This document shows, one piece after another, positions 1,281 to 41,515 of a stretch of DNA of 45,020 nt. The stretch lies in IMG/VR virus record IMGVR_UViG_3300005939_000012. One strand, given 5' to 3'. The notes beneath the pieces are model-generated. The model saw only the letters and a list, made by a program, of their open reading frames with translations. It was not told where the DNA came from and ran no database searches. Position 1 is the first letter of the stretch; every line of letters starts with the position of its first letter. This DNA comes from a virus. The translations under genes and the position numbers were made by a program.

Positions 1281-1457
1281 ATGGAAGATAAAAAATACAC
1301 CCAGAAAGAAATTTTAGAAATGTTTAGTATACATCGCCAAACTCTAAATAATTGGAGGAGAAATGGAACTATTAAATATGAAAAAATAAATAAAAGAAAG
1401 TTTTTATATTATCTTCCAGAAACTAAAATTATCCAGGAAGATGAAGAAAGAATATAA
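1281..1457 (+). CDS. small HTH DNA-binding protein (AlpA/MerR-like)
   Basis: KEILEMFSIHRQTLNNWRRNGTI is a helix-turn-helix motif. I trimmed the tool ORF 1221 to the internal ATG at 1281 to avoid overlap with the preceding CDS. Confidence 0.4.
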   Translation: MEDKKYTQKEILEMFSIHRQTLNNWRRNGTIKYEKINKRKFLYYLPETKIIQEDEERI

Positions 1458-2103
1458 TTATGTTTACATAACGACAAATTTAATTACATCTAGACAATAT
1501 GTAGGAGATCATTCGACAAATAATATTAATGATTCATATTTAGGGAGTGGTGATATTTTAAAAAAGAAAGTAAAAGAATATGGTAAGGAAAATTTTAAAA
1601 GAGAAATATTAGAATTCTTTGATTCTAAAAAAGAAGCATTTGTTGCCCAAGAAAAATATATTAATCTATATAAGTCGCATGTTTCTCAAGGAGGATATAA
1701 CATAAGTTGGAAAGGTGGACATAATGTAAAAGATTGCATTTCTGAAGAAACTAAGAAAAAAATAAGTAAATCAGAAAAGGGTAAAAAAATATCTGATGAG
1801 CATAAATTAAAAATTTCTAAATTTAATAAAGGAAAAACTTTATCAAAAGAACATATAGAAAAATTAATTAATTATAATACTGGAAGGGTTGTATCAAAGA
1901 AAACTAGAGAAAAAATTAGTAAAAGTAAAACAGGTGTTCCGTTATCATTAGAACACAAAAAGAAAATTAATCATGAAGGTATAAAAAACCCCATGTATGG
2001 AAAAACTCATTCAAACGAATCAAAAGAAAAAATGAGAAAAAGAAAAGAAGGGTTTGTGGCGTGGAATAAAGGTCTTAATACAAAATCATTAAAGAAACGA
2101 TAA
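1441..2103 (+). CDS. GIY-YIG homing endonuclease with NUMOD3 repeats
   Basis: YVYITTN...YVGDHS...LGSGDILKKKVKEYGKENF is a GIY-YIG core. Repeated GK..S.EHK..IS blocks are NUMOD3-like. Confidence 0.75.
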   Translation: MKKEYNYVYITTNLITSRQYVGDHSTNNINDSYLGSGDILKKKVKEYGKENFKREILEFFDSKKEAFVAQEKYINLYKSHVSQGGYNISWKGGHNVKDCISEETKKKISKSEKGKKISDEHKLKISKFNKGKTLSKEHIEKLINYNTGRVVSKKTREKISKSKTGVPLSLEHKKKINHEGIKNPMYGKTHSNESKEKMRKRKEGFVAWNKGLNTKSLKKR

Positions 2104-2175
2104 CATATTCTTAACAGTATAAATTTTCTAATCACAGAGTTTTTAATTATATTAGCTTAGTAACTTATTAAAAAT

Positions 2176-2427
2176 ATGAAGAATAGTACAGATTTGCATA
2201 TCCAATATAAAATGGAAACCGGAGAATGGCATCAATGGGAAGAAAGATCAACCGGAGAATTTCACTCTCAATTATGGTACTCAAGAGAATATGCGTTATG
2301 GTTAGAAGAAAAGTTACTCGAAAAACACAAACATCAGGAAACAGTTGAAGAATTATTAATTAGGATTCAAAATCTCGAAGATGAAGTAGAATTTTGGATT
2401 GAAGAACATAATAGATTAGATCAATAA
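2176..2427 (+). CDS. hypothetical protein
   Basis: 83 aa ORF with no recognisable motif. Confidence 0.4.
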   Translation: MKNSTDLHIQYKMETGEWHQWEERSTGEFHSQLWYSREYALWLEEKLLEKHKHQETVEELLIRIQNLEDEVEFWIEEHNRLDQ

Positions 2428-2461
2428 CAAACACATAATAATTATTTAAACAAACAGACAA

Positions 2462-3007
2462 ATGGAAAAATTACAAATTTTATATATTTTATTAGCCGCA
2501 GTAGGAGCATTCGTTTTAGTGCTATCTATATTTGGTGGTGAAGCAGATGCAGAAATTGATATAGGTGGGGATTTTGATATTTCCGATGCAGAATCTCCTT
2601 CCGATTCAGTAAGTGTATTTTCACTAAGAACGCTTGCAACCTTTATGTTAGGTTTTGGAATGGCTGGATGGTCAGTAATGAAAGGGGATGGTGGAATTAC
2701 TGCTCAAATACTTGCAGGCTTTGGTGCCGGTTTGGTTATCTCTTTTCTATATTATTTAGTAATGAGGTTTTTCTTTAGTATGCAAGGAAGTTCAATGCCT
2801 ACAGCAAAAGCAATAATGGGGAAACAAGGAATTGTAGCGATCCCTACTACTTCAACTGGGGTAGCTCAGATAAAAGTAAAAACAGTGACGGGATATTCGG
2901 ATTATACTTGTAAAGAAGTAAATGGAAAGAAACTTGCACAAAATGATATAGTCAAAATAACTTCGGTAGAAAACGGAATGGCTGTTATTATAGTTGAAAA
3001 AATTTAA
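2462..3007 (+). CDS. NfeD-like membrane protein (SPFH partner)
   Basis: It has N-terminal TM helices and a C-terminal beta-rich segment, GIVAIP...VKITSVENGMAVI. It sits directly upstream of the SPFH gene, as in yuaF-yuaG type operons. Confidence 0.55.
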   Translation: MEKLQILYILLAAVGAFVLVLSIFGGEADAEIDIGGDFDISDAESPSDSVSVFSLRTLATFMLGFGMAGWSVMKGDGGITAQILAGFGAGLVISFLYYLVMRFFFSMQGSSMPTAKAIMGKQGIVAIPTTSTGVAQIKVKTVTGYSDYTCKEVNGKKLAQNDIVKITSVENGMAVIIVEKI

Positions 3008-3050
3008 CAATTCACATATTTACTAATATTAATTTTAAACACAAAAACAA

Positions 3051-39574: not shown

Positions 39575-39774
39575 TGAGAGAAGCAAACGGAATTTTAACG
39601 TTAGGTCTAGGAGATTTAACTATGGAAGGAAGAGAGAAGAAATTCAAAGAAATTCAATACACTGATATAGCACGAGCATTGGATCCCTTTAAAAATGCTA
39701 GGGTAGTTTTGCTTGTTGATGACGAAAAAGGAAAAATGAAAATTATGAAATCTTGTTATAAAATTACATTATGA
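39574..39774 (+). CDS. hypothetical protein
   Basis: 66 aa. Confidence 0.3.
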   Translation: MREANGILTLGLGDLTMEGREKKFKEIQYTDIARALDPFKNARVVLLVDDEKGKMKIMKSCYKITL

Positions 39775-40250
39775 GAGAAAGAGATGGAGATTTAATAAAA
39801 TTAGCTAAGGAAGGACATTTTGATGTTATAACTCATGGTTGTAATTGTTTTTGCCAAATGGGTGCAGGGATTGCTCCACAAATGGCAAAGGCTTTTGGTT
39901 GTGATAATTATCCAATGGAAGCAGCTAAACATAGAGGCAATAAAAATAAATTAGGAGAAATTGACTATGAATGGCTAATTATGAATCAAAATCATGAACT
40001 AGCTGTAGTGAATTCATACACTCAATATCATTATGGTAGGAATCATAAAGATGGAGTCAGCGCACCTATTGATTATGAAGCATTGACTTTGTGTATGCGC
40101 AAAATTAATCATGTATTCAAGGGCAAAACTATTGGATTACCAAAAATTGGAGCTGGTTTAGCTGGTGGAGACTGGAATAGAATTAAAGAAATTATTGAAA
40201 CTGAACTAAACGCAATGGATGTTTGGATCGTAAATTATGATGGATCATGA
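39771..40250 (+). CDS. macro domain protein (ADP-ribose binding/processing)
   Basis: FDVITHGCNCFCQMGAGIA and LPKIGAGLAGGDW. Confidence 0.6.
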   Translation: MRERDGDLIKLAKEGHFDVITHGCNCFCQMGAGIAPQMAKAFGCDNYPMEAAKHRGNKNKLGEIDYEWLIMNQNHELAVVNSYTQYHYGRNHKDGVSAPIDYEALTLCMRKINHVFKGKTIGLPKIGAGLAGGDWNRIKEIIETELNAMDVWIVNYDGS

Positions 40251-40350
40251 AAGGTAAAGGAGTTTTGTTGATAGGATTTTTATGGTCATTACTTAATTTG
40301 GCAGGATATTTACTTTTTGATGTAACTGGATTGTTGATAGTAAACTGGTC

Positions 40351-40647
40351 ATGTATAGCAATCATCTGGTTTGGAAGAAAAAAATTAATAAAAGCGTTAA
40401 ACATATGAATGTAAAAGAACTAAAAGAAATTATCAAAAACTTGCCAGATGATATGCAAGTTATAGTACAAAGAGATGCAGAAGGAAATGGATATGAGATT
40501 GCTCAAGGAGCAGATCCTGAATGTGTTTATAAAGAAAGTGAAAGTGAAATTTATAATCTTGCATGGACAGCTGATGACGCTTGTATGGAAGAGGATGAAT
40601 GGAAAGAAATTTGTAGCAAACCAAGATGCTTAGTTGTATACCCATAA
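40351..40647 (+). CDS. hypothetical protein
   Basis: 98 aa, with an alternative start at 40405. Confidence 0.35.
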   Translation: MYSNHLVWKKKINKSVKHMNVKELKEIIKNLPDDMQVIVQRDAEGNGYEIAQGADPECVYKESESEIYNLAWTADDACMEEDEWKEICSKPRCLVVYP

Positions 40648-40720
40648 TAAAAGGATTGTATCATGTCTTTTATGAAATGGTATAAAGTGGTTTTATTCTA
40701 TGAATATATAAAATAAAAAT

Positions 40721-41515
40721 ATGTTTATAAAAGGAAACCAAACACTTAGGATTAAAATTGAAAATTATAGAAATAAATGGTTTTATAAAAAAATTCTCGA
40801 AAAAGATGTAGAGGTTGGAGATGAATTTGATATTCAATGGACATTATTGAAAACATCATCACATAGAAGAGAGAAAATAGAAGTTATATGTGATGATTGC
40901 GGAAAGTTTATAGAAAAGCGTTTATGTGATTTAGATGAAAATATAAATGAACATTTTTGTCAAAGTTGTAATAGAAAAGGAAAGGGAAATCCGGCTTTTG
41001 GAAAACAAATGCCAGAAACTACGAAAAAATCATTAGAAAAATGGCGAGAAGAAAATGAAAATCCATTTACTTGGCCAGATGTAAAAGAGAAAATTCGAAA
41101 GAAAAATCCTTGGAAAATAGTTGCTGAAAAAAACACAGGTAGAAAAAACACTCCCGAAACTATTAAAAAAATGAGAATTTCTGCCATCAATTATATAAAA
41201 GATAAAAATGGTGGAATAACTCCAAGGTATAATTACAAAGCATGTTTATTTTTTGATAATTTATCTAAAGAAAAAGATTGGAATTTAATACATGCTAAAA
41301 ATGGTGGAGAATTTCATATTGAAGAATTAGGATATTTTGTAGATGCATATGATAAAGAGAAAAATATAGTCATTGAATATGACGAGGCAGCACATTATAA
41401 GAATGGAGAACTTATAGAAAAAGATAAAACAAGACAAAAAGAAATAATAGATTTATTAGAATGTAAATTTTATAGATATAATGAACAAACAAAAGAATTC
41501 TATCAAGTTAATTAA
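40721..41515 (+). CDS. homing-endonuclease-like protein, paralog of ORF 8811
   Basis: The C-terminal ACLFFDNLSKEKDWNLIHAKNGGEFHIEELGYFVDAYDKEKNIVIEYDE...LLECKFYRYNEQT is nearly identical to the 8811 C-terminus. Zn-binding C..C and NUMOD-like regions lie upstream. Confidence 0.5.
   Translation: MFIKGNQTLRIKIENYRNKWFYKKILEKDVEVGDEFDIQWTLLKTSSHRREKIEVICDDCGKFIEKRLCDLDENINEHFCQSCNRKGKGNPAFGKQMPETTKKSLEKWREENENPFTWPDVKEKIRKKNPWKIVAEKNTGRKNTPETIKKMRISAINYIKDKNGGITPRYNYKACLFFDNLSKEKDWNLIHAKNGGEFHIEELGYFVDAYDKEKNIVIEYDEAAHYKNGELIEKDKTRQKEIIDLLECKFYRYNEQTKEFYQVN

Follow-up and report, generated by a model that had tools for sequence, protein, structure and literature searches.

Nine modular nuclease genes, most of them likely free-standing homing endonuclease genes, in a 45-kb stretch of an uncultured phage genome

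The DNA analysed here is the 45,020-nucleotide (nt) stretch of the IMG/VR virus record IMGVR_UViG_3300005939_000012, referred to in full as the window, which comes from the low-GC genome, repeatedly recovered in metagenomes, of an uncultured tailed phage. It contains nine modular nuclease genes, each named here after the lower of its window coordinates, eight of which are best read, and in our judgement quite likely, as free-standing homing endonuclease genes, with gene 6939 as the exception. This reading is built on the domain families, the fold and the alignment of catalytic residues, together with the presence or absence of the genes in relatives, a tract of perfect identity with one of these relatives and the swapping of modules between genes. 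All the genes are of known kinds, so that the case is a real, well-documented and ordinary one of densely packed, selfish mobile nuclease genes.

Results

Nine nuclease genes of four catalytic families lie between conserved genes and tRNAs

A first-pass annotation, made from the sequence letters, had described nine homing-endonuclease-like genes that were free-standing and unusually dense. All nine open reading frames (ORFs) were found where it had placed them and their families were largely as claimed: four GIY-YIG genes, one HNH gene, one DUF559 gene, one PD-ExK gene with a zinc finger and two paralogs (8811 and 40721) with a common C-terminal domain. Using Pfam, PHROGs and NCBIfam profiles for family assignment, a recognised catalytic domain (GIY-YIG, HNH, DUF559/Vsr-like or PD-ExK) was found in nine out of nine genes; several Pfam scores fall just below their cut-offs and the PHROG matches are strong. 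Since the domain common to 8811 and 40721 is of the Vsr/DUF559 type (see below), the nine genes represent four catalytic families (GIY-YIG, HNH, Vsr-like and canonical PD-ExK) in three folds, rather than the "at least five families" that had been announced.

In the GIY-YIG and HNH genes, the nuclease is N-terminal and NUMOD3 repeats are C-terminal. The four GIY-YIG genes all match phrog_314, "homing endonuclease", with E-values (E) from 5.5e-33 to 4.5e-43. Gene 1441 (1441-2103, plus strand, 25.0% GC) has NUMOD3 repeats in five stretches (E 5e-13), a phrog_314 match at E 4.5e-43 and a Pfam GIY-YIG score of 22.4 bits against a cut-off of 22.6. Gene 11667 (11667-12308, plus strand) lies directly 3' of tRNA-Tyr (phrog_314 E 1.6e-39; NUMOD3 E 8e-6): its mechanically called ORF begins at 11505 and covers this tRNA, the ATG at 11667 being the sensible start, and a 51% identical homologue is found in the tRNA array of the relative L029. 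Gene 28998 (28998-29675, minus strand), between NadE and a PncA-like gene, matches TIGR01453 with 58.4 bits, above cut-off, and phrog_314 with E 5.5e-33, while gene 30407 (30407-31105, plus strand), 3' of the same PncA-like gene, scores 35.3 bits for GIY-YIG, above cut-off, and 64.4 bits for TIGR01453. The HNH gene 21936 (21936-22577, plus strand) bears three NUMOD3 repeats (E 4.8e-17) and matches HNH_4 (24.4 bits, cut-off 22) and phrog_655 (E 2e-41).

The domain order is reversed in 8811, 40721, 10157 and 6939, where a zinc-finger/NUMOD3 region, called the head below, is N-terminal and the nuclease C-terminal. Gene 8811 (8811-9566, plus strand) starts with two C2HC fingers (PF22992, 28.6 bits) and ends with a Vsr/DUF559-like nuclease at about 9189-9563, assigned from its match to our profile A4 (E 7e-54) and its paralogy with 40721; its stop codon falls inside tRNA-Glu, giving a 15-nt overlap. 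Gene 10157 (10157-10936, plus strand), between tRNA-Pro and tRNA-Gln, has an N-terminal zinc-ribbon region before a DUF559/Vsr-like nuclease (DUF559 30.9 bits, cut-off 20.6; MTES_1575 E 4.6e-8), and 54 of its 55 homologues carry PF04480. Gene 40721 (40721-41515, plus strand), which overlaps the start of nadR by 35 nt, combines a four-Cys ribbon, a NUMOD3-like linker and a Vsr/DUF559-like nuclease (41150-41512). Gene 6939 (6939-7541, plus strand) joins a C2HC finger to a canonical PD-ExK nuclease (Phage_endo_I E 1.4e-6; phrog_945 E 3.7e-13). That most of the genes carry NUMOD3, as had been proposed, holds above the Pfam cut-off for five of the nine; matches in 8811, 10157 and 40721 are sub-threshold and none was detected in 6939. 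The DNA-binding modules besides NUMOD3 are the C2HC fingers of 8811 and 6939 and the four-Cys ribbons of 40721 and 10157.

Each nuclease gene is an ORF of its own between conserved genes or tRNAs, and no group I or group II intron family of Rfam reaches its gathering score anywhere in the window, so that the genes are free-standing. As the first-pass annotation had noticed, four of them sit in or at the edge of a tRNA array, 6939 ending one base before tRNA-Cys and 8811, 10157 and 11667 lying between tRNAs, and three interleave with NAD-salvage genes, 28998 and 30407 flanking the PncA-like gene beside NadE and 40721 overlapping the start of the NadR-like gene.

Together, the nine genes take up 6,258 nt, which is 13.9% of the window or one gene per 5 kilobases (kb). 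In phage T4, termed an oddity for its endonuclease genes, 15 such genes account for 11% of the coding potential (PMC2988022). Locally, the density seen here is thus high, about twice the T4 average per kilobase, yet of the same order. The nine genes have a GC content of 25.9%, compared to 31.7% in the other 60 genes (Mann-Whitney p = 1.6e-5). Ten further unannotated ORFs of the window were scanned for endonuclease domains and none carried one. Beyond the 3' end of the window (by about 2.5-4 kb), the contig L007 of the same phage encodes two more probable endonucleases: a 270-amino-acid (aa) protein (L007 7427-8239) hit by the 10157-family profile (E 1.8e-15) and a 181-aa protein (L007 8555-9100) with weak SegE-type GIY-YIG and NUMOD3 matches. 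The high nuclease density hence extends outside the window.

By predicted fold, 8811 and 40721 have in common a divergent nuclease domain of the Vsr/DUF559 type

The 8811 and 40721 proteins are 50% identical over 215 aa, and their common C-terminal domain of about 97 aa is 76% identical at the protein and 84% at the DNA level, so that its earlier description as a "nearly identical" 90-aa domain was overstated. No Pfam, NCBIfam or PHROG model covers this domain, and nothing relevant at E<=10 came up among all PDB sequences (3r3p and 1cw0 included) in a phmmer search and two profile searches. For DUF559 itself (Pfam cut-off 20.6 bits), 40721 stays below at 13.2 bits and 8811 has no match, with 10157 above at 30.9 bits; weak matches were limited to 40721 and five of 96 diverse members of its clade, the five being at E<=0.01. 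A direct BLASTP comparison of 10157 with 40721 was not significant.

The domain could be placed only via structure prediction, fold search and profile-profile comparison. Its AlphaFold model (pLDDT 93) resembles PD-(D/E)xK nucleases, namely RAP, DUF559, Vsr and I-Bth0305I, and the predicted structure fits the Vsr-type restriction-endonuclease fold. Across the 96 members, G196, E197, D208, Y210, N215, E219, E222, H225, D235, R238 and I242 (40721 numbering) are invariant, in a layout D...E-x-D-x-x-x-H...D...R as in Vsr/DUF559 enzymes, and a clade-specific QHAxNGGE motif occupies positions 190-197. The predicted catalytic residues are D208, E219, D221, H225 and D235. When the clade profile A4 was aligned using hhalign with A5, a 39-sequence DUF559 profile built from 10157 homologues, the two matched with E 6.9e-5 over 98 columns, D65, E76, D78, H82 and D92 of A4 falling on the invariant D62, E73, D75, H79 and D89 of A5. 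The match of the clade to the lone 10157 sequence was weak (E 0.005-0.01) and improved only with the 39-sequence profile.

Judging from this predicted fold and this residue register, the domain is a divergent, putative PD-(D/E)xK nuclease of the Vsr/DUF559 type, in the same superfamily as 10157. A new fold was considered and rejected, since both the AlphaFold model and the catalytic register with DUF559 point to PD-(D/E)xK. The earlier suggestion of an undescribed nuclease module was therefore right about a nuclease, profile and fold placing the domain among nucleases and not in another kind of family, and wrong about its novelty, considering that it belongs to the known Vsr/DUF559 branch of the known PD-(D/E)xK superfamily and is not a new kind. 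Its link to the EDxHD family would rest on fold, layout and an intermediate profile, direct sequence similarity being undetected.

The clade is large: an exhaustive profile search returned 4,477 cluster representatives at E<=1e-3 (502 at E<=1e-30), a lower bound that corresponds to at least 4,477 protein clusters at 50% identity. The domain is C-terminal in proteins of 200-350 aa in most of the 150 clade matches listed, and most of the 96 scanned members have DNA-binding modules, which are NUMOD3 in 51 of the 96 and C2H2 fingers or helix-turn-helix motifs in others. Among deposited phages, only Lak megaphages and one 484-kb uncultured phage carry it. Stand-alone forms also exist: a 114-aa ORF of the relative L002 (4069-4413) is 100% identical to the 40721 C-terminus and has no DNA-binding head, and other contigs encode similar forms of about 105-116 aa. 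Because Pfam, NCBIfam and PHROG hold no model of the domain, clade members are annotated as hypothetical proteins, an annotation gap that a model built from the A4 alignment would fix.

Relatives lack several of the genes and one gene lies in a tract of perfect identity

The first-pass annotation had proposed a comparison with related genomes lacking the insertions, and such genomes were found. The viral contig L001 has its gene order conserved and about 50% protein identity. There, NadE overlaps PncA, which the homologue of gene 31974 directly follows, and both 28998 and 30407 are missing; L001 has a GIY-YIG gene of its own elsewhere. In L031, whose NadR is 55% identical, no endonuclease of the 40721 type or any other precedes nadR. 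In L002, whose other shared genes have 80-83% DNA identity with the window, 40721 is without its N-terminal half and the preceding 4.7 kb are missing too; a GIY-YIG gene lies 5' of pncB, a place taken in the window by a small unrelated ORF. Patchy presence at syntenic sites was thus seen for 28998 and 30407 (L001) and for 40721 (L031 and L002), 6939 being always present. Since mobile elements are predicted to be patchy, relatives without several of the genes agree with mobility.

The insertions relative to L001 also carry extra ORFs: a 103-aa ORF beside 28998 (28617-28928) and, after 30407 (31105-31965), two small ORFs together with a 172-aa HD-type phosphohydrolase (phrog_990, E 3e-25). These ORFs may be cargo that moved along with the endonuclease genes.

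The comparison with L002 further revealed a tract of 529 nt with perfect identity (41068-41596, plus strand), which spans the 40721 nuclease domain and reaches 116 nt into nadR. Considering a background identity of about 83%, chance could not produce a perfect run of this length. Beyond the tract into nadR, mismatches rise gradually, with two in the next 22 nt and then about 10-30%, identity falling to about 60-70%; upstream of the tract, no L002 homology was found. From this pattern, the tract is probably a recent gene-conversion tract with co-conversion of the flanking gene, as described for phage endonuclease genes (PMC10448857). It could instead be a chimera of metagenome assembly, considering that L002 is a 9.9-kb metagenome contig, that assemblers may join strains across shared repeats and that the left edge of the tract is abrupt. 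We find this improbable: to the right, L002 continues as a homologous, diverged nadR with the gradual mismatches that a conversion tract predicts, to the left it has a complete unrelated ORF, and the 114-aa product of its copy is recorded as a protein cluster of two sequences from two contigs.

These observations also bear on whether 8811, 10157 and 40721 may be mismatch-repair nickases, like bacterial Vsr, rather than mobile genes. JGI does name 10157 homologues "very-short-patch-repair endonuclease" and the three nucleases do have a fold in common with Vsr. However, HMMER and Pfam detected no similarity to Vsr itself, and a repair role was rejected as most improbable because the three copies, within 32 kb, each have a different sequence-specific DNA-binding head, because each insertion immediately precedes a conserved gene, and because presence varies between relatives and one of the three, 40721, lies in the recent exchange tract.

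Nuclease modules and DNA-binding heads are exchanged in the tRNA array

The tRNA array (7543-17193, plus strand) groups 17 of the 18 ARAGORN tRNA calls of the window and two further Rfam calls, and hosts four nuclease genes. Equivalent arrays are found in three more distant relatives (L025, L026/L029 and L028/L030), where 6939 homologues are accompanied, in the remainder of each array, by a differing mix of HNH, GIY-YIG and PD-ExK genes. At some equivalent points of the L029 and L030 arrays other nuclease families are found, for example 5' of tRNA-Glu instead of 8811. There, the L030 gene 13400-14086 joins the C2HC head of 8811 to a 6939-type PD-ExK nuclease and ends in the same TAA as 8811, inside the D-arm of tRNA-Glu, with the 15-nt overlap found in both. 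Comparing these two genes thus shows one DNA-binding head at one insertion point with two nucleases in two phages. Conversely, one nuclease domain is found with two different heads inside a single genome (8811 and 40721). Nuclease domains of the 6939 type also occur directly 5' of tRNA-Glu in L029 and of tRNA-Leu in L030.

The positions of the genes raise the question of whether the nucleases are kept for a benefit to the phage, at counter-defence loci (the tRNA array and NAD salvage), where they could drive segmental amplification or exchange or exclude competitors, for which SegB of T4/T6 is a demonstrated example; such a role overlaps with homing. Seven of the nine genes do lie in or beside the tRNA array or NAD genes, 6939 is fixed at the array head and better conserved than its neighbours, and several isoacceptors are present two or three times in the array. 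In T4, SegB, encoded in the tRNA cluster, promotes inheritance of its region (PMC2330249) and amplifies tRNA-Tyr and other anti-defence genes, its homologues being enriched near tRNAs (PMC13096335). When we looked for recent segmental duplication or tandem amplification in the array, however, none was found, the duplicated tRNAs being only 71-82% identical; the anti-defence role of the NAD genes is hypothetical, and, 6939 apart, which genes are present and to which families they belong differs from one relative to another, the behaviour of selfish elements. Retention for such a benefit is a possibility that we consider rather doubtful.

Two further features of the array concern RNA. A full-length GOLLD RNA (Rfam RF02032, 154.7 bits against a gathering score of 150) lies at 15937-16422 in an ORF-free gap ending the array, with a tRNA-like match inside it at 16011-16080.

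Gene 6939 appears fixed at the head of the tRNA array

Gene 6939 scores 28.4 bits against Phage_endo_I, the T7 endonuclease I family (PF05367; cut-off 29.1, E 1.4e-6), several of its homologues have precomputed PF05367 matches, and a motif NPDF...IEVKG (PD...E-V-K) is visible behind its N-terminal C2HC finger. As hhalign found no relationship to the 8811/40721 clade, 6939 represents a separate PD-ExK lineage. Its homologues abut tRNA-Cys in the three relatives with equivalent arrays (five loci: L025, L026/L029 and L028/L030) and are 54-59% identical, while the same three small genes upstream are merely 35-45% identical. Since it abuts tRNA-Cys in all relatives examined and is better conserved than its neighbours, 6939 looks fixed and not recently mobile. 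Its distribution suggests an endonuclease that is probably old and has been retained throughout this phage group at one place 5' of tRNA-Cys, and it may be a fixed or domesticated one.

A different explanation would be that 6939 is a housekeeping, structure-specific endonuclease, namely a Holliday-junction resolvase of the T7 endonuclease I type, and that it lies beside the tRNA array by chance. Its best matches are in line with this idea (Phage_endo_I, and phrog_9019 and phrog_190, "Holliday junction resolvase"), as is the conservation of its position, length and sequence across all relatives. Its architecture and paralogues speak otherwise: it has an N-terminal zinc finger and a NUMOD3-like linker rich in lysine, as homing endonucleases typically do, the geometry of its stop codon, which abuts tRNA-Cys, is that of 8811 at tRNA-Glu, and paralogues of its nuclease domain lie at variable sites directly 5' of other tRNAs (L029 11319-11852; L030 13400-14086 and 15717-16346), one of them with the zinc-finger head of 8811. 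A resolvase placed there by chance therefore seems to us rather unlikely, and a retained endonuclease is the reading of 6939 that we keep below.

The surrounding genome and its population

The window has a GC content of about 32%, holds nearly all its genes on the plus strand and contains 18 tRNAs called by ARAGORN, two further tRNAs called by Rfam and the one GOLLD RNA. A megablast search of its first 25 kb against 50,697 deposited phage records gave only short tRNA matches and no close relative. The window sequence recurs at 99.7-99.97% identity on contigs from ENA, JGI and Logan, in at least six samples, the longest being a 57-kb ENA contig. The gene table of one of these, L020, seemingly lacks 8811, yet its DNA is collinear with and 99.97% identical to the window. 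Metagenome scans with NadR yielded nothing at first and then one locus (L031), and no relative emerged when viral contigs were scanned with the SPFH protein.

The neighbours of the nuclease genes encode a glucosaminidase, an SPFH/flotillin protein, a major-vault-protein-like protein, a dCMP deaminase, PTH2, a Macro domain and a TonB-dependent receptor. Within 27715-42515, a near-complete NAD synthesis and salvage set is found (NadE, a PncA-like isochorismatase, PncB, a MazG-NMNAT fusion and a NadR-like protein), with the Macro domain and PTH2 alongside; this set may serve to restore NAD during infection. The vault-like protein (805 aa, 17804-20221) has a major-vault-protein shoulder (E 3.5e-27) and repeat domains (E 5e-12), and its gene is kept in L003 (64%, as the sole gene in common with the window), L030 (71%) and L004 (82%). 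Together with the 516-aa SPFH/flotillin protein (3051-4601), it is unusual cargo for a phage. The TonB-dependent receptor (37616-39574; Plug E 8.5e-11, beta-barrel E 1.5e-20) is also found in L031 (52% identity) and is missing from L002; that the phage encodes it suggests a Gram-negative host.

An AT-rich intergenic repeat of about 63 nt has its best copies at 6542-6604 and 15378-15440 (83% identical to each other) and weaker copies at 12280, 12450, 5540-5604 and 14700-14760. A copy that is 94% identical is found in L002 (7846-7910), suggesting a conserved regulatory element. Finally, a tRNA with a CTA anticodon (23630-23703) is of the amber-suppressor type (ARAGORN label "Pyl", Rfam tRNA 59 bits) and L029 has a tRNA with a TTA anticodon (7885-7955); recoding is not evident in the window, where genes stop with TAA 54 times, TAG seven times and TGA seven times.

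Discussion

How would such genes spread? By analogy with the seg and mob genes of T4, an enzyme encoded by one phage would, during a co-infection, cut the gene-less allele of a related phage near the insertion point, recombinational repair would then take the gene-carrying genome as template, and the gene would thereby be copied, with its flanking markers, into the cut genome. With a common nuclease module joined to different DNA-binding heads, the head would set the position of the gene, 5' of tRNA-Glu for 8811 and 5' of nadR for 40721. At the level of sequence, the evidence for such mobility is good: it comprises the relatives that lack 28998, 30407 and 40721, the tract of perfect identity, the low GC content of the nine genes and the head found with two nucleases at tRNA-Glu. 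The tract also gives indirect support to cutting of the gene-less allele followed by gene conversion.

Several points weigh against this reading. We infer cleavage activity, target sites and homing itself from sequence. The relatives with empty sites are distant (about 50-55% aa identity), a distance at which gain and loss of a gene look alike, and the near-identical strains (99.7-99.97%, at least six samples) keep every nuclease gene that their contigs cover, no polymorphism being found within the population. All relatives examined keep 6939 in its position, and L004 has a homologue of 21936 at the corresponding position (58% aa identity); vertical inheritance fits these two facts no worse than recent homing does. 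Concerning the 8811/40721 domain, sequence searches tie it to no solved Vsr or EDxHD structure, the Foldseek E-values of its model against the PDB are weak (0.02 or higher) and the hhalign probability of A4 with A5 is just 63%. Vertical inheritance as core genes, which the first-pass annotation had named as the contrary case, is at odds with the relatives that lack 28998, 30407 and 40721; it applies in part to 6939, fixed beside tRNA-Cys, and the L004 homologue of 21936 goes in the same direction.

A bolder proposal can be made: that the 8811/40721 domain (QHAxNGGE with D..E.D...H..D) defines a large, unmodelled homing-endonuclease clade that extends to Lak megaphages, that its members and PD-ExK genes sharing their heads insert, in this phage group, exactly where tRNA and NAD-salvage genes have their 5' ends, and that this clustering at counter-defence loci reflects a selected, SegB-like role in the exchange or amplification of these loci and more than a tolerance of selfish DNA. 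Taken as a whole, we consider it unlikely to be right.

What the window offers, with free-standing homing endonuclease genes as the favoured explanation, is a compact example: four catalytic families side by side in one region, a base-perfect exchange tract ending inside an endonuclease gene, one head with two nucleases at the tRNA-Glu site of two phages and one nuclease with two heads in one genome. The placement in the tRNA array and among NAD-salvage genes agrees with recent work that connects SegB with tRNA and anti-defence loci, and offers a way of probing how general this association is. The current understanding of how such elements work is unchanged by this case.

Among known systems, the nearest kin of the 8811/40721 clade are the EDxHD/Vsr-like endonucleases (I-Bth0305I, Hef of phage U5 and the metagenomic "fractured gene" endonucleases), for which the reversed layout, with the DNA-binding region N-terminal and the nuclease C-terminal, was described, including in free-standing phage genes like hef (PMC2677866, PMC3239194, PMC2988022). 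The 8811/40721 domain differs from I-Bth0305I and Vsr in that sequence similarity is undetectable, and from EDxHD enzymes in its extra N-terminal helical pair and invariant QHAxNGGE motif. Its heads are zinc fingers and NUMOD3, whereas I-Bth0305I has NUMOD2-like helix-turn-helix repeats, and the genes described here are not in an intron or split intein. Compared to DUF559 (PF04480), MTES_1575 and RAP, which form the Vsr-like branch of the PD-(D/E)xK clan in Pfam, the clade is mostly beyond the reach of the models, as the DUF559 scores given above indicate.

The genes resemble the Seg (GIY-YIG) and Mob (HNH) endonuclease genes of T4 in being intergenic and free-standing, in having NUMOD-type tails, in lying among tRNA genes and in being co-inherited with flanking markers (PMC2330249, PMC2988022, PMC13096335), SegB being the well-studied precedent for endonucleases in phage tRNA clusters (PMC2330249), for which amplification of tRNA and other anti-defence genes was recently demonstrated (PMC13096335). 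They differ in their local density, about twice that of T4 genome-wide, and in the mixing of four families, including two PD-(D/E)xK types that T4 lacks. As in the homing endonuclease gene islands of ICP1 and other phages, nucleases are found at the edges of high-identity tracts and DNA-binding and nuclease modules are swapped (PMC10448857); the tract described here is 529 nt long, compared to more than 10 kb there, and ends inside the endonuclease gene itself.

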